Assembly (NCBI GenBank): GCA_964187785.1
Contig: OZ076409.1
Location: 558,001-622,000, forward strand
Origin: Amphiscolops sp. MND2022
Taxonomy: Eukaryota
DNA: 64,000 nucleotides
Direction of reading: 5' to 3'
The translations under genes and the position numbers were made by a program. Positions 20,309 through 51,708 of the stretch are shown in pieces (the first letter of the stretch is position 1; every line of letters starts with the position of its first letter). The notes beneath the pieces are model-generated. The model had not been told where the DNA came from. It saw nothing but the letters and a program-made list of their open reading frames with translations, and searched no databases.

Positions 20309-23245
20309 TCACCAGATACTGGTGGAGGTGAGGTCCTGACTGGCTCTGAGTGAGTTGAGATAGTCCTGCTCGTCCTGCAGGATCTGGTCATCGGATTGGG
20401 CAGAAGACCTCAGATACTCCAGGTCATACTCTAGCTGAAGAGCCTTCCGCATCTGCTCCACACTCAAGGCGTTGTTTATCTGCGACGTGAAGTCGGCAGG
20501 GGTATTGAACCCAGAGTCATTCATAGCACCCAGTGAGCTAGTCACAGTCACCATCGTTCTCTCTTTCGCGGCGCCCGTCGTCGACCTCGCCAGATCCGGC
20601 ATCGAAGGAGCCACGTTCAGATCCAGGGGTTGTTCCATGGAGAAAGTGGGTAGAATAGGTGATTTCACGGGGCCGGAGCATTTGGAACAGACCAAGGTAT
20701 CTTTTTTGGCTTCCAGACTTCTATGTTGCTGAGCCAAAAGCAGCCTCTCTTGGGCCAGACTTTGTTCCTGTGCCCTGAGAGAAGCCAGCTTCTCCTTGAT
20801 CTGCTGCAGCCTGTGCTTCTCTTCCAGCTCAATGCCAGTTGCCTTGTTCAACGCTTGCAGGCCTTCCTCTCTGATCTTGGAAGCATCAGCTGCCAAATTC
20901 TCCAATTGCAGGTATCTGTGTTTGTTCTCCATCATCGACTCGTCCAGAGTCTTTCTCTCAATCTCGAACTTCCTCTTGCTCTCATCCAACAGAGCTTTCT
21001 CTTGCTCCAATTTGTCTCTATCCACCTTCAATTGCGCCGAGGTTTTGGCAAGAACTTCGTGTTCTTGAGCAATGGCCTTCAGTGAACCTGAAATGTCAGC
21101 CTCCACTTGAGCATTCTTGAGAGATTCGTGTTTCTCTCTCTCCGAGTACGACTTCATCGACGCTTCCAACTTGGCTCTTTCGATGCCGAGAAGTCTGCGC
21201 TCTTCGTACAACTGGGATCGCTCCTCTTTCTGCTCCTTCTCGAAATCGCTTTTTGCTTTGTCCAGCCAACTTCGTTCCTGAGCAATTTTGTTCAACTGTT
21301 CTTCTTGTTGTAAATGCAAGTTTTTCTTTTCGGCCGCAACTCTAGCTTGATCTTGCATCAGAGTGAACTTGTCGTTCTCCAAACTCGATGCAGTATCTCT
21401 CATGTGCACCTCCATTTTCGCAATCAGCTCCTGAATTTTGCGCCTCTCTCGTTCCGTGTCGTACAGTTGTCTTTCCAATCGGTCTTCCTGAATTTTGATT
21501 TCATTCTCTTTAGCTCTGATCTGGAATTCACGAGCATCCAACGTACTCGATGTTTTATTTCCCAAGTTGCAAGAGATTTCGTTAATTGTCCTAGCCTGAC
21601 TCTCCAATTGTTCTACAACCACATTAACAGATTGTAAATGGGAAGAAGCCGATCTAATGGCTTCTATCTCCATCTCCTTCTGCTTTTTCACACCCTCCAC
21701 TTTTCTTTCAAACTCCATTTTGGCTTCGCTAAAATTTCTTTCACTGAGAAGCCGCAGATTTTCAAGGGCTGTCTGGTGCCTCAGTTCAGCCTCCTGAAGA
21801 TTCCGATCGTGTCTTGCAATCAAGTCAACCCTGTCCTTCTCCATCAGCTCCATAATTGACTTGAAATGTTTTTCAATGGCTTCCTTTTCCTCTTTAGATC
21901 GTTTCATTTCATCTTCGTGTAACTCGTTCAAATGCTTCAGCTTATTTTCGTACTTCTTGACTAACAACTCCTTTTCTTCATTGAACATTGTAGTCACTTC
22001 AGTAACGGAAGTGTTGACTTCAGCTGGCCTCTTGACCGGAGACGTTTCCCGGCGGGTAGCGGAGTCATCGAAGAGGTTTGAAAGAGTTTGAGAAATAGAT
22101 TTCCTTCTAGTGGATGTTGGCTGCTTCGACACCTCACTGTTGGCTGCTACACTATAGGCATGGTCAACATTGGATTCCACAACGCGTTTCACATCCGAAG
22201 AGGGTTCCATGGCAGAGTCGCGAGATTTCACTGAGGGTCCACTCATGAGGGAAAGTAGGTCATCATTACTGCCTTTCTCACGAGACGGTAATGTTTTGGC
22301 TTCAGACGATAACCCATTAAAGGGCAAGTCTTTCATCTTCTCTTGGGGTGTTTGATAGTGTTCAATCTGTTTAATTTTACCAGTTGAAGGAGTTTTAGGT
22401 CCAAGCAATTGATCGAGAGGAATTTCGTCTCCAAAAAGTGGCTCATTCGGGCTAGTAGACGGTCTCAAATCTATTCTTTCAGGAGCTTTCGCGCTTAGAG
22501 ACGAACTAGTCTTCGGCCGTTCTTGCTCTACATTGGTTTGCCGCGACTTCGCCAAATTCATCCAGTCATTGGTAGCTTCTGGTCTTTCATCTTCCTTGAG
22601 CCAATCAGATATTGAACTTGACTTGTTGTCGCCAGCGAGTATGTCCAGAACAGATTCAGACCCCTTCCCTTTTAGCAGAGAAGGTGCTTTGCGGCCAGAA
22701 AGTACGCTTTCTGTTTCCAAAATGCTTTCCCCACCAAACTTAACAACCGACCCTTGTGTACTTTGGAAATCGGCTTTTCCTTTTCTCGTACCTCTACTGC
22801 TGAGGGAAGGCTGATATCCTCGACCGCTCAATGATTCCATATCATCTTCCTGTGTAACCTTCAGAAGTGGTTTTTGCGGTTTACTATCCAACCTTCGCTC
22901 ACCTGTCGGTGGCCTTTTACTGTCAGAACCGCCTGTTCCTAATAAACCATCAATTGTGATGTCACTTTCAACTGTAGCTTTTTTAACAGACTGATCCAAA
23001 AGTAAATCAGTTGGATTATCGTCACCCCAGTCAATATCTTTCTCGACTTTAAACATTTTGCGTTTAGTGATAGTAGGTTTTTCGCTCGAGACAGAGCCTT
23101 CATGTTTATCTGCCGGTTCTTTTTTAAGATCTGTTGCAGATGTTGGCTCATCGGTATTCTTCACAGGGCCACTTTCCGTACTTTTCGTGGCAGGGGCACC
23201 TCCAATGACATCCAGTAGATCTTCGAAGTCATCGGGGTCAGACAT
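20309..23245 (-). CDS. FBF1: Fas-binding factor 1 (FBF1/DYF-19/Twitchy)-like centriolar distal-appendage coiled-coil protein, single coding exon, 978 aa
   Basis: Long uninterrupted ORF with a disordered N-half and coiled-coil C-half; ASSHLQSVNVVVEQLE...REFQIRAKENEIK...ERERRKIQELIAKME resembles FBF1; ATG at 23245 follows a ttttccag acceptor. Confidence 0.78.
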   Translation of the reverse strand: MSDPDDFEDLLDVIGGAPATKSTESGPVKNTDEPTSATDLKKEPADKHEGSVSSEKPTITKRKMFKVEKDIDWGDDNPTDLLLDQSVKKATVESDITIDGLLGTGGSDSKRPPTGERRLDSKPQKPLLKVTQEDDMESLSGRGYQPSLSSRGTRKGKADFQSTQGSVVKFGGESILETESVLSGRKAPSLLKGKGSESVLDILAGDNKSSSISDWLKEDERPEATNDWMNLAKSRQTNVEQERPKTSSSLSAKAPERIDLRPSTSPNEPLFGDEIPLDQLLGPKTPSTGKIKQIEHYQTPQEKMKDLPFNGLSSEAKTLPSREKGSNDDLLSLMSGPSVKSRDSAMEPSSDVKRVVESNVDHAYSVAANSEVSKQPTSTRRKSISQTLSNLFDDSATRRETSPVKRPAEVNTSVTEVTTMFNEEKELLVKKYENKLKHLNELHEDEMKRSKEEKEAIEKHFKSIMELMEKDRVDLIARHDRNLQEAELRHQTALENLRLLSERNFSEAKMEFERKVEGVKKQKEMEIEAIRSASSHLQSVNVVVEQLESQARTINEISCNLGNKTSSTLDAREFQIRAKENEIKIQEDRLERQLYDTERERRKIQELIAKMEVHMRDTASSLENDKFTLMQDQARVAAEKKNLHLQQEEQLNKIAQERSWLDKAKSDFEKEQKEERSQLYEERRLLGIERAKLEASMKSYSEREKHESLKNAQVEADISGSLKAIAQEHEVLAKTSAQLKVDRDKLEQEKALLDESKRKFEIERKTLDESMMENKHRYLQLENLAADASKIREEGLQALNKATGIELEEKHRLQQIKEKLASLRAQEQSLAQERLLLAQQHRSLEAKKDTLVCSKCSGPVKSPILPTFSMEQPLDLNVAPSMPDLARSTTGAAKERTMVTVTSSLGAMNDSGFNTPADFTSQINNALSVEQMRKALQLEYDLEYLRSSAQSDDQILQDEQDYLNSLRASQDLTSTSIW

Positions 23246-23964
23246 TGTGATCTGGAAAATCATTTGAAAGTAAAACTACTACTACTACGAAAAGACTTTA
23301 ATTACCATTCTGATATGAAGTGGTAAATTTTTTTAACCCCTCAGATCGTCGTCATTTATCTAGTGCCGTTTCGGTCATCATGTAGGGGGGAGATGACGCA
23401 CACCCGTGGTCTGCAACCAAAAGGAAACGAAATAAACGAAGCACCACTACACATGCCAGCCACTATCCCAGTAGGACAGAACCAAAACAATAAAAACAGG
23501 CACGACATATTGTCGCGACTGGCTTCGAGCGGGAACGTTCAATGGTCTGTAAAAGGTGCTACAAACTGAAACCATGTTAACTTATCATGTCTCAGATCAG
23601 GAAATTTTGATGAAAGAACTGAAAGACGAATGAGACTTTTTTCCGGGAAAAATGAAGAAATGTATTTTTGGCTGTGACCCGAAGGTGTCATACTTCATGA
23701 CAAAAGAAACCTCTATTTGTAGAAACATTGTCATTAAAACATTTATTTCATTCACTGATTACCTCTTCAGATCGGCTGAAGATCAGCTCTTCAGATCGGC
23801 AATGCGGCCTGTGTTCTAGGAACTGTGAGCGACAGAGATGCATTCGAAGAAATTTATTACATATAGCCCAATTTTTTTGACCTTTAAATCATAGCAGCTT
23901 TAAAGAAAAATTCTACCGGTCGACTGCATAGTGGCTGGTTTGAGTAGTCTGTTGGTTGTTTTTT

Positions 23965-24731: not shown

Positions 24732-24919
24732 TGTGGGGCATATACGGTGTATGCACGCTCGCCCTCACCGTCGCAAAGACCAGCTCCCTCTACCATCGCT
24801 TCGCGATCTCCGTTCCCGCTAGGTTTTTGCTCTCGCTCGACCTCGCTTAGCAAGATGGGAAAACAAGCGGCCCCAAGGGGACGCAGGGCACTAGAGGAAA
24901 TGGGGACATATCCGAGGGG
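24732..24919 (+). repeat. Dispersed ~185-bp GC-rich repeat (also ~26414-26596, ~27908-28090, and a diverged minus copy ~49500-49686)
   Basis: GTGTATGCACGCTCGCCCTCACCGTCGCAAAGACCAGCTCCC...GCGGCCCCAAGGGG is shared; this copy is nested in a TIR element (~24589-25118, TIR GTCACTTGGCTTAAT). Confidence 0.8.
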
Positions 24920-25393: not shown

Positions 25394-26210
25394 TACCAGA
25401 GCCGCATATGCGGTAAAGGAGTCGGCTTAAGTCTTTTTCCTTCTGACTCGCTTTTGTTCGAATCGTATGAGCAGTTTGTGAGAAAATCGAAAAAATCAAA
25501 AAATGACCGTTTTTTGGCCATTTTTGGGCTAAATTTGGCTATGTTTCTCACATCCCAGCCATACGAATTTAAAGAAAATGCACATAAAGGACTCTAATAT
25601 GGTGTAGAATAACTAGAAAATTTCGTTCGAATCGTTTGGCCGTTTTTGGGCTAGTTTTGGCTATGTTTCTCACATCCCAGCCATACGATTTTGATGCCAT
25701 TGCACATATAAGACTCCAATATGGTGTAGAATAACTGTAGGAAATTCCGTTCGAATCGTATGGATATTTCATGAGAAAATCGAAAAAAGTCGAAAAATGG
25801 CTGTTTTTTGGCCATTTTTGGGCTAATTTTGGCTATGTTTCTCACATCTCAGCCATGCGATTTTGATGCCATTACACATATAGGACTCCAATATGGTGTA
25901 GAATGACTGTGGAAAATTTCGTTCGAACCGTATGGACAGTTTTTGAGAAAATTGAAAAAAGTCGAAAATTGGCTGTTTTTTAGTCATTTTTGGGCTAATT
26001 TTGGCTATGTTTCTCACAACCCGGTCATACGATTTTAATGCCATTGCGCACGCATGGGCCCCTTTAGGTGTAGAATGACTGTGCAAAACTTTTTAAAAAT
26101 CGTATGGACAGTTTTTGAGAAATTTGAAAAATTCATAAAAAGATCGGGAGAAAAAAAACAAAAAAACAGCACGATTGCATAAGTAGTCGAAAATTTTTTC
26201 CGACTCCTAA
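25394..26210 (-). mobile_element. HINE-like element, family 3, with ~180-bp internal tandem repeats
   Basis: Hairpin CCGCATATGCGG next to AGGAGTCGG; its inverse CCGACTCCTAA at ~26200; a related internal unit lies at ~11640-11800. Confidence 0.65.
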
Positions 26211-26365: not shown

Positions 26366-29352
26366 CTCCTGCGAAGCGTTTAAAAAAGATAAGGTACTTC
26401 TCCTCACCTAATCTGGGATCATATACGGTGTATGCACGCTCGCCCTCACCGTCGCAAAGACCAGCTCCCTCTCCCATCGCTTCGCGATCTCCGTTCCCGC
26501 TAGGTCTTTGCTCCTGTTCGACCTCGCTTAGCAAGATGGGAAAACAAGCGGCCCCAAGGGGACGCAGGGCACTAGAGGAAAGGGGGGCATATACGACGGC
26601 CAAAAACATGTTATTTGAAAACGCTAGGTATTTGGCAAAATTCGGCAAATTAAAAAAATTCGTCCCTACAAACTTCGGCAAATTGAAAGGGACAATTTGC
26701 AGAAAAAAATCGGCAAGTTGTCCCTAACGTTCGGCAAATTGTCCCGAACCCAAGGCATGTAACGACAAGCGCTGGCGCTCAACCGAGACCTAGAAGTGGA
26801 GGAACTAGAATAAGTGAATATGATCCGGGACTTAGATCTCCACTGCCAGAGCTCATTTTCCCTCCAAGGGAGCACGGGCCAGGGTGGGTGAACCGTATTG
26901 TTAGATGCTCTCTGGCCTGGTCCTAGTCTGTAACAGCTAAAAATAACAGGCATCTCCATTGGACTAAAGAGCACTGCCTAATTAGCCTCTAAAAAGGGTG
27001 CCGAAAACTGAATTAGAGTTAAGCCATAATCTAGGGAAATCTGATAAACCGCCAATGAAGAACAGTAGCACAGATGGTATTTAGACAGCTCTCCAGTATA
27101 TCAACCTAAACTGCAACCAGTACATCAAATATAACAGTTTGAGTCCGTTCTCCGTAAAAAAAATAAGATCAAAAGGAGACCCAGTGCTCACAGAACACCA
27201 GAGGGATCTTCAGGAAGACATCTGGATTCACAAAAGTAGAGAATTCATGTCGGAGATAAGAACAATTCCGTGAAAAAAACGTCAGAATAGCTGAACTAGC
27301 TGCTGGTATTGCTTTTTTTGTTCTCGAGGGCGACGTCTTGTTACTTTTGGGACTATTGTCTGGCAGGTCTTTGACCGGAAACATGTTCAGGCTGCCACGT
27401 CATTTGAACGAAATTTTGGTACTTTGTTGAAAATCATCGAAAATTGTTGACATCAGCAGTTGCCGTTACATCACTCCCCGAGCTTCTGGCTTGTCGTCCC
27501 TGGCAACCGTCATAGTGCCTCGTCCTAGTACTGAACCACTTTGGCTTCTGAGGGTCGTCATCCACAGGGACGAATCCTTGCTTTTCTGCAACTTGTTTTG
27601 ACATTTTTCGCGATCTTACTTGAATAATTTCTTTCTGCCTAGGTATTTTACAAAAACATGAATGAGGTTTTAGCACCAGCTCGAGAGCTTGAATTTCCAG
27701 CCGTTAAAAACCTGCTTTGGACAGTCAATTGCGTTTGAAAACTCTTTTGTGACAATTATCGACCAAAAACATTTTTTAGTTCAGTTTTTTGCATGTTTTT
27801 CTCTTTTCAAGCACCTTAAAAAATTGTTAAGAAGTGCTCAGACTCACTGACTCACGGAACTCCTGCGAAGCGTTTAAAAAAGATAAGGTACTTCTCCTCA
27901 CCTAATCTGGGATCATATACGGTGTATGCACGCTCGCCCTCACCGTCGCAAAGACCAGCTCCCTCTCCCATCGCTTCGCGATCTCCGTTCCCGCTAGGTC
28001 TTTGCTCCTGTTCGACCTCGCTTAGCAAGATGGGAAAGCAAGCGGCCCCAAGGGGACGCAGGGCACTAGAGGAAAGGGGGGCATATACGACGGCCAAAAA
28101 CATGTTATTTGAAAACGCTAGGTATTTGGCAAAATTCGGCAAATTAAAAAAATTCGTCCCTACAAACTTCGGCAAATTGAAAGGGACAATTTGCAGAAAA
28201 AAATCGGCAAGTTGTCCCTAACGTTCGGCAAATTGTCCCGAACCCAAGGCATGTAACGACAAGCGCTGGCGCTCAACCGAGACCTAGAAGTGGAGGAACT
28301 AGAATAAGTGAATATGATCCGGGACTTAGATCTCCACTGCCAGAGCTCATTTTCCCTCCAAGGGAGCACGGGCCAGGGTGGGTGAACCGTATTGTTAGAT
28401 GCTCTCTGGCCTGGTCCTAGTCTGTAACAGCTAAAAATAACAGGCATCTCCATTGGACTAAAGAGCACTGCCTAATTAGCCTCTAAAAAGGGTGCCGAAA
28501 ACTGAATTAGAGTTAAGCCATAATCTAGGGAAATCTGATAAACCGCCAATGAAGAACAGTAGCACAGATGGTATTTAGACAGCTCTCCAGTATATCAACC
28601 TAAACTGCAACCAGTACATCAAATATAACAGTTTGAGTCCGTTCTCCGTAAAAAAAATAAGATCAAAAGGAGACCCAGTGCTCACATAACACCAGAGGGA
28701 TCTTCAGGAAGACATCTGGATTCACAAAAGTAGAGAATTCATGTCGGAGATAAGAACAATTCCGTGAAAAAACGTCAGAATAGCTGAACTAGCTGCTGGT
28801 ATTGCTTTTTTTGTTCTCGCGGGCGACGTCTTGTTACTTTTGAGACTATTGTCTGGCAGGTCTTTGACCGGAAACATGTTCAGGCTGCCACGTCATTTGA
28901 ACGAAATTTTGGTACTTTGTTGAAAATCATCGAAAATTGTTGACATCAGCAGTTGCCATTACATCACTCCCCGAGCTTCTGGCTTGTCGTCCCTGGCAAC
29001 CGTCATAGTGCCTCGTCCTAGTACTGAACCACTTTGGCTTCTGAGGGTCGTCATCCACAGGGACGAATCCTTGCTTTTCTGCAACTTGTTTTGACATTTT
29101 TCGCGATCTTACTTGAATAATTTCTTTCTGCCTAGGTATTTTACAAAAACATGAATGAGGTTTTAGCACCAGCTCGAGAGCTTGAATTTCCAGCCGTTAA
29201 AAACCTGCTTTGGACAGTCAATTGCGTTTGAAAACTCTTTTGTGACAATTATCGACCAAAAACATTTTTTAGTTCAGTTTTTTGCATGTTTTTCTCTTTT
29301 CAAGCACCTTAAAAAATTGTTAAGAAGTGCTCAGACTCACTGACTCACGGAA
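26366..29352. repeat. Tandem duplication of two ~1494-bp units
   Basis: Both units begin near CTCCTGCGAAGCGTTTAAAAAAG and end GACTCACGGAA; ORF offsets are 1494 and 1493; about 6 differences seen. Confidence 0.95.
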
Positions 29353-29681
29353 CAACCGATACAATTCACAGGACAGGAAACTACTGCTCACGGCGATTAA
29401 AGTATCTTTTGAAGCTATAGCAACTCAAGGACACCGTGAACGGTGTTGAACAAAGATAACAGCATTCTTTCATTTCATATTTTCGTTTTTGATTGCAAAG
29501 CAAGCAACTGGGGCAGACGTACTCTAAGGCCATACACCCACTGCGGAAAAAACAAAAGTAACTATCAACAAAATATCTAAGTAACCAAAATTGCACCTTG
29601 TAATTTGGTAGCTCCTTGTAGGATTTGAATAACGCAAGGCAAGTGTTTTAGGCAAGTTTCAGTTTGACAGGCCTCATCGAG

Positions 29682-32600
29682 TCACAGGGAGCGCGAACGC
29701 TCCCAATTACGGCTTGGTTTTACGGAGTTGAACTGCGTCGTACTCCTGGGCGATACCACAGTCACTATTGTTTCTGAATCAGAGACATCTTCAGGAAATA
29801 TCAAATCAGCAATCGGTTGGACCAATGCGGTGTCTGGAGTTAACTCCGCTGCGTGCTCTCCAATGGCCCGTGGTCTCATTGGCTCAGCTTCTAATTCATG
29901 CGTTGGCAGAGCGACAGTCACTTGTTGATCTGAAGACATCGCCATCGTGGGAGTTGGAACGGCAGCGCGAACGCCTGTTGCCGGGCGGTTTCTGCTCTGC
30001 TGTCGACTGGTAAGGGTAAGGCTATGCGCCGGGATACCCAGCCTAGCTGGTTCCAGAGCTCGCAAGCTCTTTTCGAATTGGGGAAACTGGCATTTTCAAT
30101 CTCGAGGCACAGGCTCCTCCGATTCTGCGCGGGCTTGAAGACATTGCACGAAATTGAAAGCGTCGTGCATCACAAATAGCATGTCGCCAGACATGGTCAT
30201 CTTGCCTTCACGGATTCTGCGTGACAGGATATCTGAGGTTTCTTTGGCGCACTTGTGCAGCACCTTCAATCCAGGGACTCTGGCTAAGACCAGGTGCTGT
30301 AGTTGATAATTGAGGCAATCGGGCGCTAGTCCTACAGGGCGTGCACGAGGCCATCCTACCGACTCTTTCCAGTACCGGTTAGGAAACGTGATACATTTAA
30401 ATAAATACAAAGGGTCCACACAGGAACTAGCACGCGTGCAAGCTCTAATAATTTTTCGCAGAGTTTCTTGGGACCGCGGAAATCGGAAGGGGAACCCATT
30501 GATACTCAGGGGAGCTGCGTACCATTTGACTGGACTGTGTTCTCGAGATAAAGGGCTGGCTATTGGGGTGCGGGTGCGCAAAAAACCCATCAAATTCTCT
30601 TCCAACTGTTTCACTGTCTTGATGGTAGTGTACGCTTGGGCATTTCTCCACTCATGACTGCGTCTAGGACTCTGGGATATGTCAATGGCGGGCTGCCTTG
30701 CAGATAAGTGCAGGTGGATACAGGGTGGGCACGTACTGCCATTGCGATTGGCTTGGTTGGATAACGAACTACTCCAGTGGCACCAAAGATAGGGGCTAAA
30801 ACGGATACCATCGCATGAGCAAAGTCTTCTACCTCCGCTCAGGTCAGGTCAGCTAGCTGCTGCGGCATAGGGAACCCAGCAGTTTCCCAGGGTTATTGTC
30901 GATCAGGGTCGTGCAGGGGCTGCACCTGGTCCACGCCAACAAAAAATCCCGATGCAAAAATCAAGGTCGAATACAACCAGTGCTGCACCGAGGCACGCAG
31001 ACGTTCTAGCTGGGCGGAAAAGTCATGTTGATCCTTCGTGTACAAGATATGACCCCAGCGAATTAAGCTTCGAAGCTGTCCTTGAGCTAGAACCACATAG
31101 CTGTAAAACATGATTAAGTCGCAGGACACGACTATTTCAATCAGCAGGGCCAGTGGACCGGCCACGAACTTGGCCGGACCTACCATCAACGCGAGCGCTA
31201 GCACCTCTCCAATGGACATTTCTCCGATAGTTTCTGGTAGTTTGTTGGCTTGCGAGTCTGTGACTGCCAACTCAGTAGCAAGTACATCCAAATTCCAGCC
31301 CAGGCCAAGGCTAGTGCAAACGGCCTCGCGGGGAAGTTTGAGCTCGCAAGCTACATCCGACATGGTTCGATCAATAAAACGGACTTGGTACCAGTGCGCA
31401 TAAGTGATCGCACCTGCGTCAACTTCTGCTTTCAGGTTAGTAGATTCAGTAGCAATGATATTGCATAGTCCCACAGGAAGTTTTACTAGCTCTGCTCCAG
31501 GCGCAAAACGAATCTGGGGAATAGTGCTCTCAACTGCACGCGCAGCGAGCCAATCTCCGATCTGTTTCATCATTCCAGTGAGTTCTCCGCAAACAGGCAC
31601 CTCTGTAGTATTCCGTATTAGCCAGGTGGGACGGCGTAATGCTTCTCGCTCCACGGTAGTTGTTTCTCCCATCATTCGACGACCTTGTTGGTCGAAAGCC
31701 ATCCCACCCATTCTCATGCCTTGGTCATCGTGAATAGCATCATCTTGAGTCAACTGTGCGTGCCAGAGCGTTCCACGGACTGAATCACCCTTGAGATGGC
31801 TGCTATGTAGGCGTCGTAAGAAAGTGCAGCAGGGCGCAGGTCACCAGCACCATCTCGCAAGTTTGGGGCACAGATGGCAAAGTCAATAAGGCGAGCCTTG
31901 CACACCTCCATCAACAGATAGACGAACTACTGCAGATTATTCTCCCTATACATAAATCCAGGCGGCGACACGAAGAGCAAAGATGCTCCCAACCGACCCC
32001 GAAGGATCCCTCCGGCTGTCTCCATCGCGTCAGCTACAAGCTGCAGTAAGCCTCCGACACGCTCAGGATTTCATGTGTCGTTCATGACTGCGTGCAGGTC
32101 TATCAGCAGTCCTTCACAAGCCATGTGATCCAGAACATTGGCAATAATCACACGCTGGTCTGGTGGTTCCTTCAGAGAAGGAGTTCTGGGGCGAAAATTG
32201 CCACAACCAATTTTGCTCATTCGGGGATTTGTGCTAGTGGCATGGTCATCACCATCACGTCCGGCATCAAGTTGTCGATTGGTAAGTCACAACTACAGGT
32301 GGATTCTACCACCAGGCAAAAACGGGCACGTTGCAACACACTCTTTAACAGGAGCTTCAACGACGTCAAGTGCCGCGCGTATCGGGCATTTGCTTCCCAG
32401 ATTTCTCCTTCTCGTAATGAGTACCGCGCAGGGACTTGTTCAGATAAATCGTGCTGGAGGGCGGCTAAATAGTTGTGAGGTGTTCTAGGCAGTCGTTCAA
32501 CGGCGCGTTGCTCCCAGGCTTGGTCCAACATTTCAGCGGGTGACGTGGGCAGCAATACTGCATTGGTTGACGGCATGTTGGTCAGCCTCACTGGGGGGCA

Positions 32601-32874
32601 CTCGTCTTTTTGTATCGTACATGTGGGCATGAAAGAATTCCGCTGATTCCCAAATGATCGAAAAGTTTTTTGATCGAAAAGTTTGAGCAGTTTCGACCTT
32701 GAGTAGGGTTTTAATTCTAATCGCCGGATTTTCTGTGGCGTTGTGTTTACTGTGCCTCTGTCAGAATTCGACGTTCGCTTTTCGGTTGCGTGGTTTGCGT
32801 GGTTTGCGTCTTTGCTGTTTGCGTTTCTTGGGTGAGTTCGTTGATTCCCCGGAGATGTTCTCGTCGTTGTTCAT
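29682..32874 (-). pseudogene. Disrupted ~1000-codon coding region of unknown function directly 3' of Gypsy element 1 pol
   Basis: Collinear minus-strand ORF pieces (32874-32761, 32630-32217, 31753-30893, 30811-30611, 30614-30096, 30065-29682) in non-repetitive DNA of roughly 50% GC. Confidence 0.55.
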
Positions 32875-35800
32875 AGTTTGCTGGATGGTGGGGCAGTACC
32901 AGGTATGCGGTCTATTGCGCTCTTGTGGAACTTACGTAGAATTTTCCGATACCTAAGCGCTACTCTGCTCGAGCCATCCATTCTGACGGCGTGTTGGTCA
33001 AACTGTTTCACTTCGATCAACAGGCCAGTTCGATCCCATCGCGATGGATGGTTGCTTGTTCTTCTGGATGAACACGCGGTCGCCAACTTTGAGGGTTGCA
33101 ACCGTACTGTGTGTTCGGTGAGGCGTTCAGCACTTCCAACAGTTCTAGCACGCATTGCCTCTTCCCTGGTCCGTCAGGTTTTTACCCAGATGTTGTGAGG
33201 TCTGTATGAACAAGGTGGAACGGAGATGAAGTCCTTTATGGACGCGTCCAAAGATCGTCTGTGCTGGAGATAAAAGTATCGCGGTCGAAGATGTTGCCGT
33301 ATTGAAGCATGCCTCTTTCAATTTGGTAGAGTTGATCTCTGAGATCAAGACAGTGTTGTCTTCGAGCATGTGCTTGCATATCTTGCCTCCGAGCCCGGCG
33401 CGTCTGTTTGAAGGAGCAAGCGCAACAGACATGAGGCGATGATAGACACCTCAATTTAACATCAATTGCGATGTCTCCTCGGCCGTAAATTCAGGTCTGC
33501 CAAATGAAACTTGTTCGTGTGCAATGCCGAAAAATACGAAAACTTCGCAAAGGCAGTGAACAAGAACCTTAGAATTATCTCCGGATTGATGCACAATCGC
33601 CCAACCAGACTAGCTGTCCACAGTGACCACGTAATTGCAGCCCTTGTGATTGAAGTTTTCCGTACAGATGCACTGAAATGGAGAGATTGGCTTCTGAGCG
33701 GCAAGCGGAGGACCATGCGGCTGGCTGAACGCATGCTTCGTGCATAACCGGCACTGAGCCTTCATGTTTGCAATAGCTGGCGCAATGCCCGTCGAAAGAC
33801 ACTAAATTCCAACCTGGAAATCAAGCAGGAGCCGAAACCAGGCTGTCTAGGATCCGTTCTCTTTGTGGTGATGGGATAACAATCCTGTTTTTGCATAGAA
33901 TCACTCCATCCACTGTGCTGCGTCCCTCCTTGAATGGGAACAATTCTTGCAAGGACAAAATCCACCCGCGAGGTTTTTTCCTGGAAACCTTCTTCAATCT
34001 CTACTGGGAGATTTCGTAAATAATGTCATTGTGAATGGTGTGTTCTCGGAACAGGGTCCATGTAACAGCACGGATGTCCTCGAGATTGGTGGCTGGTCTC
34101 AGGAAGGCAGAGACGCTCTTGAATACTTGCGATGGAGTGCTACTTCCTCGAGATTGCTATCCAGGAGAAGTTTATCCAGAGGGTTTGCTCGAGTTGGCAT
34201 CCGGCACTAATTATTTCTGTTCGGGTACATGGATGATAGAGAACTGGCATGGTCTTGAGTGACAGTAGATTCCCATCCTTGATGTCGCTGAGGGGCCGGT
34301 TGTTGAAAACCTCGAGTAGCAGCTTGTGGTCAGTAGCCACCACTAAATTTTCGCAACCGAGTATAAAGTGACGAGCGAATCCAAAGATCCAAATCCATTA
34401 ACCACAGTCAAGGTTTCTCCTTCAATCGGAGCATGTCTGGATTTGGCTTGGTGTGTGAACCTGCTACCCGGTAACACTATTTTTTATCCCGTTGCACAAC
34501 AGACTGGAGTGATGATATCACAAGTGCAGTACTTCTAGAGGAGCCAAAAACATTTGTTTTTCTTGGCACATTATGTGGCAAGGCATGTGAATTGTTTGGA
34601 GTCGAATATCCTGAGACCTTTGGTGATTTTGTCCAGTATAGCAGCCTTGGATTGCTCAAAAACGTGGTATTGCAGATGACGGTTTGTGATGCTCGCCGCG
34701 GAAAGGTGCCATGTTTTTGCGGAGGGAATCGCGGTACCACACTTGGTTGATGGGACTGAACCAAACTCGGACGTCAGTGATGTTTTGTGGCATAGGGAAG
34801 GCTGAATGTCGGTCGGAGTGATGGCGAAGCCATCAAATTCCACTGTGTCGGAGTCATTTACAAACATTTTGGGATGCTGCACAACTCCGCGTCGGCTGCA
34901 ACTGTTTCGCTAGTGAAATTCTTGAAAAAGTTTGAAAGAAGTTTTCTTCGAAAGTATCTGCCGATGCAAGTGTCATCGATGCATTAGGTCTTATTGGGAA
35001 AGTTAGTGACAATCTCATCGAATCTTCTGGTGTACCCGTCCTGTGACGCATCGTAGCCATGTGGACAAATCATTTATCAGTATAAACACCATGGCAAGAT
35101 GGGCATGGTGAGGCGGAGGTCTTTTCGGATTGGAACACTGTGATACCTGTTCGAAGCATCGACAATCGTCGTGTTCCCTGACGCCACCAGCGTTTCCTGG
35201 TGAAACGCATATTGGATGTGATGTGTTTCACAGACAGCACTTTGGTTGAACACCTGCAAATCAACTGTGCGTTGTGACTTGCTGTTTTTCTTTCGTGCCG
35301 TGAACATTCGATGGCACCTGGTAACCGTTTCTCCCACTGGGACAGCCTGCAGGACCTCGAGTTTGACACCTCTGTACAACAATGGACAACAATGTAGAGA
35401 GACAGAAATGGGTCTGTGGACTGCAATTTGCTTGGACTTTAGGTTGACGTGGAGTTCTGAAGGTAGGCCTTTCATTAAAAGGAATGTTTGGAATTCGCAA
35501 ATGGTGAAAGTTCTGGATCGGTATCTGTCGACTATCCAAATCTGGAAAACGACCAGGTAGGTGTCAGTTGCTAGAAACGGTAGAGCAGTTGGTAATGGGG
35601 CGACCTACTAGTTGGTAATGGTGCGTATGGGGCAAGGGCAGTCTCACTCCTCATCGAGGGGGCTTGCTGCAGCTCAACTAACTGATATCGGTTCTTCTGG
35701 CAATCGTAGGATAACTGCCCTTAGAACTGTGATAACGTCACGATTCACCGTCCCATTTCTGTTTTTACAAGGTTTGGTTCAATTTTTTGAAACTCAGCAT

Positions 35801-36900
35801 GACGACTGCTTTGATCCCAACTAGGACAATTTGAAATCCAGTATCAGTCATCAAGGCTATCGTAATCTGGCCTGTCCGCGTGTTGAAGCAGCTCCTCATA
35901 TTGTTTTGTGTGAGCGCAGGCGGTGAGATAAGCTGCCGGTGATGGCGGCGACTGTATTCTGATCCAACCATTTTTCCTTGCCAAATAAGGTAGGCACTGA
36001 TGACCGCCCTTTGATCGGTTTTATAAGAAGAGACCGTGCAGACTACCGAAATGTTGCACAATTTGTGAAGGACAGTGTTGGATCATCTGTGTTGTCTTTT
36101 TACGTGTCTTTTTGGGTTTAGACCTAGAGACGTTGACGAAGTGGTTCTTTTTGTTACACGTTGAACAATACTTATCATTGCCTGGTTTTCCGCAATTTCG
36201 GCATTGGACAAGGTGTTGGTCCTCGTCAGCCTGTTAATGCGAGGATAGTGTTCAGTACTCAGGTTCTGGAGAGTTGATTGTGATGCTTGTGATGGTTTAC
36301 CAGCTTCATTGGCCTCTTCAAACTTGATCATATCCTCCATGGTCATTGCTCCATCCTCCATGTGCTGCTCGTTGTGTCCCAGTTTATTTGCTTGATGCAG
36401 CTGTCGCCTAGTACTCTAGCGAGGGCGCCTTGGTCCATGTCATCGCTGTAGTTAAATGCTTCAAATGGGCTATGAGAGCAGTTTTTAGAGAACTTGCAGA
36501 CCTTAACTTGACATCGTAAGCGAGCGACAAGACTCGTAACACCCTCTTCTCTGTAATCCACTCCGTGTCATTCTCATGACAGACATCCTGCTCACCATGG
36601 CGTCCTCAGCCTTGACAAAAAGGTCTTGGTGGCTGCCAGAGCATCTATTGCAGTTGCCGTAGCGGTGTTTGTGTTTGAGTGGTAGAAAACTTTGCGTAGA
36701 CCTACTCGACACTTTTGCGCAAGACAAAATGTCGGGTTTAACATGTTGCCAAGCAACTGGCGAATGCGAATGCTCGTGCACCATGAAAAGTGGGTTGGGC
36801 TGCTTCAAAACTCCCCGTGGCGTAGGTACATCCTTCAACACGGCAATTGAGCACCACCATGGATAGCGGACACGTTAACTTGTCGAATCTAGGCTTGGAG
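32871..36900 (-). mobile_element. Decayed Ty3/Gypsy gag-pol (element 1)
   Basis: Frameshifted fragments in the expected order: gag LRCQVKVCKF, protease TDTGFQ, RT RTVDLQVFNQ and DASNRYHSVP, RNase H VATDHKLLL, integrase end WDRTGLLIEV...RYRKILRKF; no LTR pair found. Confidence 0.85.
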
Positions 36901-37438
36901 CACATGATTAGTGATGCTAGCTAGGTAATATAGGAACGGGTTTGAAGTACCGATACCTGATAAATTAAAATACACGCTCAAAGATCCCATTCAATTTTGG
37001 TCTTGAATTAGTAGTTGTTAGCCATGGCTTGAGTTAAAATGTTCTGTTGACTTGGCTCAATTTTGCGGTCGTTTGGTTTGACAATTTTGAGCCCAGTGAC
37101 TTTACAAAATCATTGAGCCCAATGACTTGAGGCCAAGTGACTTGTGACTATCGCTGCTAACGTCTGTGTCACTGTGATAAAAGAGTTGAACGAGACGGTT
37201 TATACGATCTTCCTTTCACCAAGAGTGCTGGTCGCTTCTCAAAGCTAGCTACTTTCAATATTTTCTTAAAGGGTCGTATTTCCGGCGGATCAAAACACTT
37301 TTCAATAAAAAAATATTCTCATACCAAAGGGACACAAAATCTAAAATAAAGTGAAGGATTTGAAAAAGATCATCGGAAACAACATTGCAAACTAAAGACA
37401 AATGAATCACATCATCGCCCTTCCATTATTTCTTACGG

Positions 37439-40400
37439 CTACTCGCGGCAAATGTAGTCATTGAATTTCGACTGCCGTTTCCTGTCACCTGCAGACATCC
37501 TATTCGGGACCTCGGTAGTAGTAAGAGACTCTACAACCAAAGATGTGTCTCTGCTGGAAACGCAAGTTGAAACTTGTTCCACCACTCCCGTAGCAACATC
37601 TGTAAACAATCTAACCGTCACAGGATCAGGGGCAACGGTAGTTGGCTGGAACAGTTTGGCTGATACGTGCTAGAATCGTTCTCTCAGACCTGTCTGAAAT
37701 TTTCTTAGTGAGCCATGCTGTATTATATTATTGACCTTCCGAACGACAAACATCGCAGGAAGAGCCGCACTGTGAGGTCCAGCATGGAAGACCACACGCT
37801 CTCCCACGGGATAACTGATTACAGCATGAGAGTGGTCATTTCCTTCCAAACAAAACTTTCAAGTGAGTCTTTTCTCACGGAAGAAGTGTTACGGTGTGTG
37901 AACAGAACTCCAAATAGAAACGCATGGAAACTGACACGAAGAGATGAGTTCCATTCCCTCAATGCTATCGTTACAGTCCTCACAGCCCGTCCAGCAAAAC
38001 CATTACTCCTTGGATTGTAAATTGGACTCTCCAAGTTGGTGCAACCTTGAGCCTGTAACCACGTGGCCCCTCTATTGTTGACAAACTCCTTAGCGTTGTC
38101 GGAAACCAAATCTCCCAAAAATGGCGGACAGACAATGTATAACTTTTTCCGTGGTGCGATCGCCGCATATGAAAACTTCTATCTAACAAGAACCAGCGTT
38201 GAAAATACTAAGAATAATGCCTACTTCTTGGAAAGAGGCCCAATCCAGGTGTAGTTTCTCCCATGGTTGTGCATCTGTCCGAGTATCAACCGATTTCATA
38301 GTTCTGGGTCCGATTTTTGCACTTGGACCGATTTTCACTGCAGGTACTTACGACCCAATTCCAGCTCCATGCAACCAAGACATTATGTTCACTATGATTT
38401 AGTCGCCTGAACACAAGGATGCGTATCACGAGCTTGTTCAATGACTATGTTCCGCATATTTGGCAGAATGTAAGGTCTAGTTCCGTTGTAAAACATCCCG
38501 TTTCCGACTGTGAGGAAACCAGAAACTTTCGTGGAAATACTCTCTGCTTGAGTACGTGCTTTCCGATTGTCATCAAATACACACCTGATAATTCGCTTCG
38601 CCTTTCCATCGCGTTCACATTCAACCCTCAACTTTTCGAATGGAAAGAGTCTATGCTCCACAAACAGAACACAAATTTAATCAATATTGGGACTTAAGTA
38701 ATTCACTAGATTCCAGTCGTTTTTGCCGCCATCCTGATCACAATTCAGTCTGCTCATGGCGACGGCATGAGGCATTGACGAACTTTCTTTGTAATAAATC
38801 CTAAATTCAAAAGCCATAAGCGAAATTGCCCATCTTTTGATTCTTGCTGATACGGTGTTTGGGAGTCTCCTTTGGAATGGTACGGTTTGAAGCAAATATG
38901 AACTCCAGAGGACGATGACCACTTTTGAGCTTGAGTTTCCAGCCACGTAAAAACCGTTTCAAGTGTTTTACCATAAAAACAATTGCTGTGGCTTCACGCT
39001 CATCGTTACAGTACCTTTGCTCAGCTTGAGACAATGTCTTTGATACATAACTTACAGCGTGACCTTCCTGAGCCAAAAGTTTTCTCAGAAGTATCAGTTG
39101 TGAATGTTATTTCTTTTTCCAAGGAGTAGGGCTGACCAACAGGTTTCGATGCTAACTCAGACTTCAACGTTTCGAATGCACATTCACAGTTTTTAGTCTA
39201 CTGGAACTCAGTCTTCGATATCTTCCTCAGATCAGACATTGGGGCCACTTTGGAAGTGAAGTTCGGGATGAACCGGTCGTAGAAGTTGACCAATCCACAA
39301 AACTGTTGAACTTCTTTAACGCTTTGAGGAGAATTGATTTTCTTGACTCTTTTGAGAAGGTAATCATCGGGCCCAATCCCTGAAACTGTGAAACCGAGAA
39401 AAGTGGTTTTCTTCATGATATTTCCAGGATTGATTTCATCAATCGTGAACACATTGTTTTTCTAGACGATCCTCAACGGCCCTCCAACGCTTCTTACATT
39501 GACGTCCTGTTCTTCCGATTACCAGTACGTCGTCCTGAAAGGAGCATGTTCCAGTCAATCGTTTGAGAGAGTTCTCGATTGTTCGCTGGAACATTCCGGA
39601 TGCGTTTTTAAATCCTTGAGGTAGTCGGAGTAACTTGAAGACACCAAGCGTTGCGTTGATGACACAAATATCTTGCGCAGCATCGTCCAGCATTTTTTGG
39701 TAATAAAAAGATGATAAGTCAATCTTGACATAAAACTTTGGTCCTTCTAGATCGTGAAATATTGTTTCCTTGTAGGGAAGCAGGTAAGCTTCAGTCATGA
39801 TCTTATCGTTTGAGGTCTGCATAAAGACCAAAAGATCAGTGTTTCTTCTTTTGACGCACAACTGGCGAGGCCTTTCCATGACACGCCATGGATCGACGGG
39901 GGCAGTGTTTCCTTGTGCCTATTGTTTCGCCTCTTCAATCTTGACCTGAGCTTCCATGGCAAGTGGAAATTTGCGAGCGCGACGAAAAACAAGTTTTGCT
40001 TCAAGTTTCAGTTTGATAATTGCCTTAGCTTTTTAAATGGCAGGCAAGATTTTTACATCAGATAAAGACGTGTTGTGAATGTGATCATCTCGGATCACGT
40101 CGCTGCCGATCAATCACAATTTGTCTCGGACTCAAAAACTGCAACGTCAACGCTATGAGTTTACTTTTCTCATGAGATTTTACACTTTAGATGACCAAGA
40201 TACTGCAATCTGTGTCCATCGTACGCTTCAATATATCGAGGGATACTCCTCAAGGTTGGAGAGACAATTCGTCGCCAAAGTTTTGTTGATATAATGGTCA
40301 CGGAAGAACCAGTGTTCTTGTTCATTCGAATGGTATGACCATTTAGTTTGATGCAATGAAATGAAGCTGTGCTTCCAATGTGATAAGCTTCTTCTTGAGT

Positions 40401-41200
40401 TGCAGTTTTTTGAAGTTCGAGAGTCTTCTTGTTTTTCGGCTTTGCATATTTTGGAGTAGTCTCCTTGCTTCGAACAATTTTGACTTTTTTCAATCACACT
40501 AGAAAAGTGTGTGAAATGGCTTTCGTCAACATCGTTCACACTGCTCTGGTTTCTGAGGGAGACTCAGATCTTTTTTTACTATTGGAGCCACGTTTTCCGC
40601 ATATGCAACTACACTTGAAGTTGACTGATGAACTGAAAGCTCGGCAAACTTTTTGACCTGGGTTCTATAATGAATGAGCTGAAGCAGTTCTTTCATAGTC
40701 AAGTTGTCGTTTGCTTTGATTACCTCAAGTAACTTGATATTGGATTCGCTGTCTCCAATGATCAATTGTAATCGAATAAATTCAGCTTCAGCGTCCGGGG
40801 AAGCTTTGAGATCGACAAACTTGCAATACTGCGCAGCCTCTCCGAGCTTAACAAGGTAGTCGGTTTCTGCTTCTTCTCCCTCTTGAGACATCTGAAGGAA
40901 ACTAGTGCGTTTTGCAACCACCAGTTTCCCTTGTGGCTTCACGTAATTTATGAGATCCTTACGGTTGTCTACGATTTTCATGTCTTCAAGGATTCTGGGC
41001 GCTATGGGGCTGTTGAGTTGTATTGGCTCATGAAGAAATCAGTCACCTGATATTTGTTCGCTATGGCAACGACAGCTGGTGGTCCACTAGTTCCAGGTGT
41101 TGCGTCGATGTCTCTTTTTTTTCAACACGCGCTCGCGTTTCGAACGCTTTGAGCCACATAAGTGCTTTATCGGGTTCCGCCAGTTCCAATTCCAGTGTAC
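37439..41200 (-). mobile_element. Decayed Ty3/Gypsy gag-pol (element 2)
   Basis: Gag KRTSFLQMSQ...AAQYCKF, protease-like NTGSSVTII, RT KIDLSSFYYQ, RLPQG and FQDDVLV, RNase H SKTLSQAEQRY...HRPL, integrase LVSDNAKEF...PRSNG; many stops and frameshifts. Confidence 0.88.
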
Positions 41201-49362: not shown

Positions 49363-50759
49363 CTCTGGTGTTGAACCCTGTGGTCACATTGTGTGTTCTT
49401 TTTGTATTGAAGACAAAAACTGTGCAAAATGCGATGCCAAAGGTGATTCGAGGTTTCGAATTACACAGAAATGAAGGAATGATGCGAAGTATAAAACGTG
49501 CCTCGGATATGTCCTCATTGCCTCTGGTACCCCGCGGCCCCTTGGGGCCGCTCATGTTGTTATCTTGCCAAGGGAGGTCGAACAGGAGCAAAAACGTAGC
49601 GGGAACGGATATCACGAAGCGATCGCAGTGGGAGCTGGTCTTTGCGACGGTGAGGGCGACCGTGCATACACTGGATATGCCCCACTTTTCAGTTTTTAGA
49701 TCTTATTCCTTTAGATCATAGGCGGCGGAGCTCTCAGGATCTTGTTTGAAGGATGTCCAGTTTGTAGAATTTAATGATCCAGTTGGTAGAATTCATTGAT
49801 CCAGTTTCCAGAGAAAAAATTCTACAAACTGGACCACCTAGGACCTGTTTGTAGAATTCTGCAAACTGGTATTCTACAAACAACCTGATTTTTTCCCAAC
49901 AGACCCAAAACCCGAAACCCAATTTCTGGTACCACACCAATATCCAATATTAGCACAATCCAGTTAATTGTGATCCGTGGTGAATCAAGACCCATGCAAC
50001 CCGGGAACCAACACCACCGAGGCTGAAGCACGTAAAATAGAAGTATCGCTAATTGACAGACAATTGATTCATTTTTCAACCGGTTGCCTTGGAAGCACAG
50101 GATTCTTTAGGCGAGAGCAGTGAATTTTTCATTATGCGTCTCTGTGAAATGCGTCTCGTACAACGATCAACGAGCTGGTAGTTTTTTAACCAACGGATCT
50201 CTGGCTCTTCAGATCGGCAATGCGGCCTGTGAGCGACAGGGCAGCGTTTGCGGAAATTCATTACATAGTTATTTTTTCAACCTGTATATCGTTCCAGCTT
50301 TTTAAAAAAATTCTACTGGGATAGTGGCTGGTATGAGTAGCTTGTTGGTTATTTTTTTTGGTTACTGGTCTACTGGGAAAGTGGCTAGTATGGTGTTCCC
50401 TACTTTTGTTGCAGACCACGGTGTGTGTCGTCTCCCCCCAACATCATGTTGCAACAATGATGTTACATGACAATGCACTCGATTGATGAAGATCCATGAT
50501 ATCGGGTAGTGAAAAAAAGTTCGGAAGAAATTGGTTCAAACATTGGAGTCACTTCAAAAAAAGTTGCAAATTTTTCAGCTCAACATGAAAATTATGACCT
50601 GGAACCACCAAAAAATGAAGAATATCCCCGTACCAGCCGAATACTGGTCGAATCAATACTAATACTACTATCCTGTTTTCTTTCTCAATAAAACTATTTT
50701 TGATCCGTTTTATCCACTGTAGCAAAGTTTTTTAACGTCTTTTTCCAGATCTTTTGCAG

Positions 50760-51097
50760 ATGTCATCGCAAGTAGCAGATATAGCCCTGATTGGCCTAGC
50801 GGTCATGGGTAAAAACCTCATTTTGAACATGAATGATCATGGTTTTACTGTATGTGCTTTCAACCGGACGGTATCGAAGGTCGAGGAATTCATGCAAGGC
50901 GAGGCGAAGGGAACTAAGATTGTCGGTGCTACTTCCTTACAGGACATGGTTTCAAAACTCAAGAAGCCGCGTCGTGTGATGCTACTTGTGAAAGCCGGGC
51001 AAGCTGTAGATGACTTTATTAACCAACTTTTACCCTTGATTGAGCCAGGTGATATCATAATTGATGGCGGCAATTCTGACTTCAATGATTCAATTCG
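50760..51097 (+). CDS. PGD: 6-phosphogluconate dehydrogenase exon 1
   Basis: ADIALIGLAVMGKNLILNM...DIIIDGGNS NADP-binding motifs; donor CG|GTTAGT. Confidence 0.95.
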
Positions 51098-51708
51098 GTT
51101 AGTGTGCATTTTAAACAGCAATTCTGAAAAATTAACTGCAATTATTTGGCACAAATAATTTATTGCTAGCTTCTTGCATTCATTCAATTGATTTTTGTCT
51201 CCAATTAAATCCAATTGAGTACTACTATAAAATCTACTGCAAGTGAAATCTAATGCACTCAAATAATAACGAACTTCTAGTATTGTATGGAAAAAATGTA
51301 AATGAAACAGTGTATGTTGGTATCAGAAATACTGAATTATTATAAAAGACGTGCGGAAGGTATCTGCCTGGCGTCTTGTTTGATATTTTTGCGTGAGCTG
51401 AAATGTTGGAGAACTAAAGGTGACAGTGTAGTTCTTTTCCATGCTGCTGGTAGATATTTCAGCTCATGTTGCGTGGGTAGAGAGTGACGATTAAGGGTTC
51501 TCATGCATGTTTGTGTAAGATAGTCAATAAATGGCATTGTACTTCAAGGACTGCTGCTTTTCATAGCCAGCTACGTAACTGAATGCAAGTAGTAGTTGTC
51601 ACCTTTTCATTCCATGATGCTTGAGTTTCGAAGGGCAAACTTTTATTGTGTGCAGTGTAGTATCCACGTCCTGTGTAAATGGTGGTGTTCCCCAAGCTGT
51701 GTTTTCAG

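Follow-up and report, generated by a model that had tools for sequence, protein, structure and literature searches.

We analysed a 64,000-nucleotide stretch of the genome of Amphiscolops sp. MND2022 (assembly GCA_964187785.1, contig OZ076409.1, positions 558,001 to 622,000 of the forward strand). This whole stretch is called the window below, and positions are counted from its first base. On its minus strand, a decayed Ty3/Gypsy retrotransposon, here element B, lies end to end with a piece of another Gypsy lineage, here family A, whose third open reading frame (ORF3) is the second subject of this analysis. A preliminary description had taken the two for a single Gypsy element, with pol coupled by an overlapping stop and start codon (ATGA) to a third ORF of about 1000 amino acids (aa) with a basic N-terminal arm, possibly a captured viral capsid or nucleocapsid gene. 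Its observations were partly confirmed, and its interpretation is partly supported.

The junction of element B and family A

The features around the junction are as follows (LTR, long terminal repeat).

32692..36968 (-): element B, decayed Ty3/Gypsy gag-pol, cut about 90 codons before the end of pol and without a 3' LTR; 74-77% identical in DNA to numerous copies in the genome, all of which stop at 32737-32687
32871..32873 (-): TGA that had been taken for the end of pol, a premature in-frame stop in the C-terminal tail of B pol
32764..32874 (-): 37-codon "basic arm" ORF, in the -1 frame of the B pol tail
32786..32824 (no strand): 9-bp tandem repeat, 4.8 copies (Tandem Repeats Finder), giving a K/R-rich peptide when read out of frame
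32657..32691 (-): junction filler between B and A, about 35 bp, with a short CTTTTCGAT duplication, from alignment of the window with B and A copies
29682..32656 (-): family A ORF3, a 5'-truncated decayed copy (tblastn of protein P0003; stop at 29682-29684)

In the alignment across the junction, the window was B-like to about 32690, followed by the filler of about 35 bp, and then by family A from 32656. For nine of the nine family A relatives fetched from the genome, BLAST homology started at window position 32656 or 32655. A genome search with 32874-29682, in which the best 40 of 1621 candidates were scored, gave at least 55 matches including the window itself, and at least 54 elsewhere; the first 218 bases of this query were covered by no match but the window among the matches listed. 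The DNA identity of the family A region to the other copies was 66-87%. The 10 kb upstream of eight family A copies were mutually homologous over most or all of their length, and none of these eight stretches (0/8) matched the window over 100 bp or more.

A genome search with the B query 35400-32400 (best 40 of 348 candidates scored) gave at least 78 matches with 72-78% identity. The B copies listed all stopped at positions 2572-2714 of the 3001-bp query, corresponding to window 32829-32687, and among the matches listed only the window spanned the whole query, junction included. For seven of seven B loci, the flanks had no match in 29743-32656; these seven copies of the adjacent pol family lack the ORF3 region. 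The region therefore occurs independently of the adjacent Gypsy element, and a single Gypsy element with cargo is contradicted by these data.

Intact B copies (L031:1469-4135) carry RVT_1, RT_RNaseH, Integrase_H2C2 and rve, and B is therefore assigned to Ty3/Gypsy. The window copy of B gave no Pfam match: when 24 stop-to-stop ORFs of the window were searched (E, expect value, <= 0.01), matches were found only at 38.8-40.5 kb, and the three frames of 32871-37499 and those of 29400-32874, translated with stops as X, had none at E <= 1.

The letters of the stop/start overlap are as first reported. The minus-strand frame reads ...IPGTAPPSSKL and then TGA (32873-32871), and the preceding A (of CTA) together with TG gives an ATG at 32874. 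The end of pol, however, does not lie there. In tblastn with intact B pol ORFs (L033:1569-3203, L031:1469-4135), the alignment crossed the TGA in the same frame: B pol has ...FDKIVVD-IPGTTHTIKHLKTLNNAENLSPVNQRTNPEQA, and the window has ...FHKSAIDRIPGTAPPSSKL, the stop, and TTTRTSPGNQRTHPRNA. The L033 pol frame extends about 155 codons past the TGA position, ending in ...RPPVRLGDYIRL (...GDYIRL). Neither of the two intact B pol ORFs examined (L033, L031) has a stop at this place, so that the overlap is not kept in these relatives. Since the intact B pol ORFs read on in frame, the TGA in the window is a premature stop inside the pol tail. We estimate that an A precedes a TGA by chance in about one case in four, and the ATGA overlap is unremarkable.

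The frame opened by the ATG at 32874, MNNDENISGESTNSPKKRKQQRRKPRKPRNRKANVEF (MNNDENISG...RKANVEF), ends in a TGA after only 37 codons and differs from the frame of the ORF pieces downstream. This leaves neither an ORF of about 1000 codons starting at the ATG nor a coupling of such an ORF to pol. A K/R-rich peptide is present as described, but it does not form the N-terminus of a third gene; the basic arm, which resembles a nuclear localization signal, is the C-terminal, integrase tail of B pol read in the wrong frame. Both this finding and the independent occurrence of the region had been named in the preliminary description as outcomes that would refute its reading. The true N-terminus of ORF3 (MAHCPNNS.../MAYCPSNS...) is missing from the window.

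The same-strand, protein-like pieces that had been noted down to 29682 are indeed there. They are stop-to-stop ORFs of 71-315 codons in changing frames, and they are not chance reading frames: they map to residues 397-1393 of P0003, a protein of 1426 aa, as five main pieces in frames -2, -3, -2, -1 and -3, and they include the Pro/Thr/Ser-rich tail. They are more decayed than the "few stops and frameshifts" of the preliminary description, with at least four frame changes and six in-frame stops when compared to an intact relative. The B pol frame continues by chance over the junction into the frame of the A ORF3, resulting in a 217-codon ORF (32217-32870). This is probably why two fragments looked like one gene.

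From these results, we read the locus as two dead Ty3/Gypsy fragments, unrelated to each other, that adjoin by chance on the minus strand, with ORF3 intact in another Gypsy lineage (probability about 0.85). In this reading, the B pol tail carries the premature TGA and is cut off near 32690, and the filler leads into a family A remnant consisting of ORF3 residues 397-1393, a 0.7-kb non-coding stretch and the 3' LTR. Two points weigh against this reading. The junction could have more than one origin: an aberrant recombination, or a deletion between insertions that were neighbours or nested. A search for the LTR of B with 36950-37800 gave only a dispersed repeat of about 390 bp, copies of which were not paired with known B copies.

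A single Gypsy element with pol ATGA-coupled to a captured capsid or nucleocapsid ORF is hardly credible. An ATGA overlap and a K/R-rich peptide do exist, and same-strand ORF pieces do follow them; but the homologous coding frame at the ATG is that of pol itself, and the pieces belong to another family whose ORF3 starts with a different N-terminus. The first gene model is thus refuted at this locus, which is dead and chimeric. The locus itself is debris, and the gene model corrected here, plausible but false, came from a chimeric reading frame that spans two transposon fragments.

Family A and its third open reading frame

The family A remnant continues beyond the ORF pieces, and the homology shared by family A copies runs to about 28250 in the window.

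28967..29681 (-): non-coding stretch between ORF3 and the 3' LTR, with a purine-rich tract at its end, homologous in full copies
28252..28966 (-): family A LTR, TG...CA, about 713 bp; elsewhere as solitary copies and as 5'/3' pairs
26757..28250 (-): second 1494-bp unit, composed of other repeat DNA (about 390 bp), the final 390 bp of the A internal region again, and a second LTR (26757-27470)

LTR pairs flank fetched copies at C12:54140241/54157871 (17,631 bp) and C1:23084075/23101690 (17,616 bp), and the LTR-like segment also recurs as many solitary copies. The 5' LTR of the copy L037, the 5' member of the C12 pair, is 81% identical to both LTR copies of the window. Inside the LTRs, the pol domains of the copies are in the order protease/reverse transcriptase, RNase H, integrase (RVT_1, RT_RNaseH(_2), Integrase_H2C2 and rve in L036 and L022). 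By this order and its paired LTRs, family A is a Ty3/Gypsy (Metaviridae-type) LTR retrotransposon. A 493-aa ORF upstream of the protease in L016, in the position of gag, had no Pfam match. ORF3 starts about 200 bp behind the pol stop. A third ORF between the integrase and the 3' LTR of a Gypsy-type element, as first proposed, thus holds for family A but not for the pol adjacent to it in the window. The window piece is about the last quarter of the element of about 17.6 kb; the other 13 kb or so were not found anywhere in the 64-kb window.

The LTR region of the window is arranged in tandem at 26366-29744, with a period of 1494 bp and units 99-100% identical; each unit joins an LTR to some 390 bp of unrelated repeat and to the final 390 bp of the internal region. 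The arrangement points to unequal recombination or to a recent duplication at this place. The two window LTRs are separated by 390 bp (27861-28250) that were considered as the 5' leader of family A and rejected, as they had no match downstream of the L037 5' LTR.

The integrase of family A has an in-frame C-terminal extension of about 700 aa (L025:5045-7678, minus strand; L036:2618-5785, plus strand; L024:5116-7104, minus strand). The extension consists of a disordered stretch with a CGTCGLRDC motif and an AT-hook-like GRGRPPK motif, followed by a conserved structured part of about 400 aa, and in the protein database the region is found fused to rve/Integrase_H2C2 proteins. It had no convincing Pfam match (Spore_coat_CotO was below threshold at E 0.015, in one copy) and no PDB match by sequence or profile. 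A macro-domain-like assignment of its C-terminal domain, made by eye, was dropped for lack of a Pfam match or a PDB match by sequence or profile.

A word-based search identified 49 relatives of ORF3, including full-length proteins of 1426, 1435 and 1456 aa that represent clusters (90% identity) of 581, 1 and 657 members. In the first cluster, seven of the 15 members listed were exactly 1426 aa long. A profile search against 1.84 billion representatives gave 535 clusters with E <= 0.001, of which 375 were at or below 1e-10 and 143 at or below 1e-30; most were short fragments. The present genome holds the 1456-aa type: its matches were 96-99% identical to P0033, and 16 of the 32 scored had no stop. 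With P0248 (1187 aa; 29% identity to P0003 over 701 columns, E 2e-54) as the query, 33 of 39 genome matches were free of stops, with open frames of up to 1451 aa. P0248 matches this genome at 27-30% only and therefore comes from elsewhere.

The only long intact ORF3 piece of the window, 30893-31840, was used for estimating nonsynonymous (dN) and synonymous (dS) divergence. Compared with three copies, its dN/dS was 0.157, 0.171 and 0.113; for six copies of a more distant subfamily, dN was 0.23 and dS was saturated. The order of pol extension and ORF3 is the same in a family with an ORF3 only 44% identical. ORF3 is a genuine accessory gene kept by selection, with many intact copies in this genome. 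Given the relatives, the intact copies, the low dN/dS and the shared order in the 44%-identical family, it is an old, selected part of this Gypsy lineage and not a recent cargo.

The agreement with the preliminary description extends to its failure to recognize a family: no named family matched ORF3 by sequence. Pfam gave no family for P0003 and P0033 at E <= 10 and none for four ORF3 pieces at E <= 0.1, and no name was attached to any of the 167 cluster members read. Neither a single protein nor a profile matched PDB sequences, the ESM Atlas gave no neighbour, and PHROGs gave only noise at E 0.2-0.5. Among viral contigs in IMG/VR there were seven pattern matches and among JGI metagenome contigs 139, none of which were confirmed.

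This lack of relatives of known function, with most of the 535 clusters being short nameless fragments, might suit an ORF3 that is a host gene or derives from another mobile element and only happens to neighbour Gypsy copies. That explanation is very improbable in view of the position of ORF3 behind the same extended pol, both in the 67-87%-identical DNA copies and in the 44%-identical protein family. ORF3 also lies inside paired LTRs and has hundreds of near-identical members.

One member of the ORF3 family, the 246-aa fragment P0154, has a database record as a hypothetical protein from a metagenome-assembled genome attributed to Bacteroidota, where it lies on a contig of 816 bp. Most likely this is animal DNA that was binned by mistake.

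Fold and possible role of the ORF3 protein

The first 400 or so and the last 120 or so residues of ORF3 are rich in Pro, Ser, Thr, Gly and Gln and flank a core. An AlphaFold2 model of residues about 510-1020 had a mean pLDDT (predicted local distance difference test) of 83.8 and a pTM (predicted template modelling score) of 0.56, with 306 of 511 residues at or above 90. It was built from an alignment of 126 sequences (depth 25-67), to which fragments from the profile search and the P0248 group had been added; an earlier alignment of 13 sequences gave a pLDDT of 40.9. Model residues 1-194 form an alpha/beta/alpha domain that a structural scan against representatives linked to SGNH/GDSL hydrolases, the 50 rows listed being mostly SGNH-family esterases or O-acetyltransferases. 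The predicted core has the three-layer alpha/beta/alpha arrangement of the SGNH fold. A helical domain is modelled with confidence at model residues 290-463; the match lists were filled by the first domain. The model shows the ORF3 core as an SGNH-hydrolase fold followed by a helical domain, with disordered ends predicted on either side. In the window, the first domain corresponds to the following feature.

31760..32336 (-): SGNH-domain part of the window ORF3 (residues about 510-703), placed by P0003 high-scoring segment pairs and model numbering

With this model, Foldseek gave no match at E <= 0.001 in PDB or BFVD. The same kinds of protein came first in PDB, only at E 0.04-0.3, and the esterase of the zebrafish L2 ORF1 protein (4c1b_B) was at rank 32 (E 0.28, probability 0.44). 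The named top matches in BFVD, and the sole viral fold matches, were SGNH esterase domains of phages. A captured viral capsid or nucleocapsid gene is not borne out: the search of the viral collection gave no confirmed relative, and the predicted fold is of the esterase type, not that of a capsid.

Eleven long sequences share Asp520-Ser521, Asn577, Asp580, Pro-Pro-Gly-Phe, Cys-Ala-Pro-Asn and Leu-Thr-x-Asp-Asp-Ala without variation. No His is invariant among them, and a His four residues after Asn577 is present in 44 of 52 sequences. In the model, Asp520-Ser521 comes directly after predicted strand 1, where the GDS nucleophile would lie; Asn577 comes after predicted strand 3, at the presumed site of the block III Asn; and Cys-Ala-Pro-Asn comes after predicted strand 5, at the presumed site of the block V Asp-x-x-His. 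The block II Gly was found only in the most distant family member. The window copy has Glu-Ser where Asp-Ser is invariant (peptide ...RFCLVVESTC...). If this placing of the motifs is right, the domain would keep the nucleophile and oxyanion side and would have lost the acid-base pair, which favours a binding role over canonical hydrolysis. Because invariant Cys-Ala-Pro-Asn replaces the Asp-x-x-His block, ORF3 probably acts without canonical hydrolysis. Given the fold, we put a non-catalytic or non-canonical binding module at about even odds, and leave a smaller share to a function other than this, an active enzyme or an Env.

An active esterase or acyl-transferase with non-canonical residues, modifying lipids or glycans for the element, is a doubtful but serious alternative. 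The invariant Ser after strand 1 could work with another base, for example the His found after Asn577 in most sequences. The SGNH-like fold, the invariant Asp-Ser after strand 1 and the Asn after strand 3 would all fit such an enzyme, and active esterases are described, as far as the sources cover them, for LINE (long interspersed element) ORF1 proteins (PMC3905857) and rotifer Vesta ORF3 (PMC5408684). The absence of an invariant His, Cys-Ala-Pro-Asn in the Asp-x-x-His place, the near-absence of the block II Gly and the lack of a match to any GDSL sequence model argue against it.

The position of ORF3 invites comparison with Env. ORF3 occupies the place of env, starting about 200 bp after pol, and a possible splice acceptor precedes it; the protein has two or three inner segments of moderate hydrophobicity at about 900-1040 and a conserved hydrophobic helix near residue 45, and Env-carrying Ty3/gypsy elements are, according to the part of the literature at hand, widespread in invertebrates (PMC13524379). 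A very divergent Env or fusogen, and thus an errantivirus-like endogenous retrovirus, is nevertheless quite unlikely. In simple hydropathy and motif counts on P0003, P0006 and P0033, we found no N-terminal signal peptide or C-terminal anchor, as the preliminary description had noted, a Cys content of 1.2-1.4%, 6-10 sequons and no internal furin-type site (R-x-K/R-R). The hydrophobic segments hold Asp/Glu and are modelled with high confidence as packed helices, no Pfam env family matched at E <= 10, and the C-terminal tail has conserved sites of the RRxS type, which point to an intracellular protein.

We favour a binding role for ORF3 inside the cell. A pyrimidine tract and an AG are present 10-15 nt before the ORF3 ATG in seven of eight copies of one subfamily and in the distant family, and the ORF3s of LTR elements are, in the account of PMC5408684, typically expressed from spliced messages. 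ORF3 may accordingly be made from a spliced subgenomic RNA. The protein would then act inside the cell as a membrane/lipid- or RNA-binding helper of the element's particle or ribonucleoprotein; by analogy with the LINE ORF1p esterase, this role may be played at membranes or in the ribonucleoprotein. A tentative and rather improbable extension is that an animal Ty3/Gypsy clade, active in the present genome, swapped Env for an intracellular protein of about 1430-1480 aa around a His-less SGNH domain, together with an integrase extension of about 700 aa, as the LTR counterpart of the LINE ORF1p esterase. If this is true, retroelements would have a recurrent and independently evolved need for a step that depends on lipids/membranes or on RNA, for example the assembly of particles, their trafficking or a spread without Env.

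Other points count against this interpretation of ORF3. The putative splice acceptor is a tract and an AG read by eye in seven of eight close copies and one distant copy. The placing of Ser, Asn and Cys-Ala-Pro-Asn follows predicted strands and not a residue-level superposition. No Pfam GDSL model matches ORF3 even at E <= 10. The model covers residues about 510-1020, about a third of ORF3, and within it the fold assignment applies to the first domain.

Other features of the window and comparison with known systems

A third decayed fragment lies directly upstream of B in the same orientation, so that the region is a pile of three truncated LTR elements.

37819..41038 (-): third Gypsy-type fragment with pieces of protease, reverse transcriptase, RNase H and integrase (Pfam RVT_1, RT_RNaseH and gag-asp_proteas on ORF pieces)

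The BEL/Pao retrotransposon at 58220-63481 (+) is nearly intact: one stop, at about 60764, divides its two long ORFs (847 and 905 aa), and its domains are DUF1759, Peptidase_A17, Integrase_H2C2, rve and DUF5641. BEL/Pao elements are not known outside animals, and the host is an animal. An uninterrupted ORF of 988 codons at 20309-23275 (-) encodes a Fas-binding factor 1 (FBF1) domain (E 2e-78) and is probably a host gene exon or an intronless copy. Exon 50736-51158 (+) codes for the N-terminal, NAD-binding part of 6-phosphogluconate dehydrogenase. Copies of a dispersed repeat of about 180 bp, 84-86% identical to one another, are found at 24733-24917, 26420-26596 and 27914-28090 and, inverted, at 49501-49685. 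Several element B loci have this repeat in their flanks as well, and it may be a SINE (short interspersed element) or a MITE (miniature inverted-repeat transposable element). A 172-bp tandem repeat array of about four copies, 62-90% identical, lies at 25513-26150.

The nearest parallel to family A is found in the Vesta LTR retrotransposons of bdelloid rotifers, whose ORF3s encode GDSL esterases (Rodriguez, Kenefick & Arkhipova 2017, PMC5408684). As far as that source describes them, both kinds of ORF3 are non-Env genes behind a Gypsy-like pol, with an SGNH fold, predicted in our case, and probably a spliced message. The Vesta ORFs keep invariant S-G-N-H and are recognisable by sequence, whereas family A ORF3 has no GDSL match and has Cys-Ala-Pro-Asn instead of Asp-x-x-His. 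With its 1426-1456 aa, large helical domain and long disordered ends, family A ORF3 is also set apart from the rotifer ORFs as they are described there.

The esterase of the ZfL2-1 ORF1 protein (ORF1p; PDB 4c1b) binds negatively charged phospholipids, and a Gag-like membrane targeting has been proposed for it (Schneider et al. 2013, PMC3905857). The ORF1p esterase of CR1/L2 LINEs and ORF3 are alike in being SGNH-fold domains carried by retroelements, the fold of ORF3 being a prediction. They differ in that the LINE esterase, as reported in that source, belongs to the non-LTR class and to the ORF1 gene and is catalytically active, and its structural match to ORF3 is weak (E 0.28).

ORFs of invertebrate Ty3/gypsy errantiviruses resemble paramyxovirus F or herpesvirus gB (Chary & Hayashi 2026, PMC13524379). 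In the features that this source describes, errantiviruses resemble family A: both are of the Gypsy type, have a large third ORF where env would lie, and occur in animal genomes as many similar intact copies. Compared with errantivirus Env, ORF3 lacks a signal peptide, an anchor and a Cys-rich ectodomain, and the core, as modelled, folds like an esterase.

Burro of planarians and Ogre of plants are giant Gypsy-like elements that carry accessory ORFs (Arkhipova & Yushenova 2019, PMC6431247). According to the passages of that source on these elements, they are, like family A, oversized Ty3/Gypsy elements in which the additional length is coding but its function is unclear; Burro has its extra domains inside one giant gag-pol polyprotein, and Ogre has an extra ORF before gag. 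Family A differs from both in having an integrase extension of about 700 aa and a separate ORF3, in about 17.6 kb.

Searching the full text of the literature for large non-Env ORF3s from animal Gypsy elements gave no account of this protein; Repbase and Dfam were outside this search, so that the term "undescribed" is not established. The OSK domain of Drosophila Oskar (PDB 5a4a) is also among the closest systems, and we take it to be part of a host germ-plasm protein and not a mobile-element gene.

Family A ORF3 is set apart from these systems by the size of the ORF, the apparent loss of the canonical triad, the lack of a match at the sequence level and the added integrase extension. It is long, strongly conserved, multi-copy and partly intact, and in place of a Pfam or PDB sequence match its confident model offers a testable handle. 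A third, independent and much larger version of the esterase type would strengthen the idea that retroelements have recruited the SGNH fold repeatedly. ORF3 would also provide a natural, abundant protein for asking whether this fold serves membrane binding rather than catalysis.

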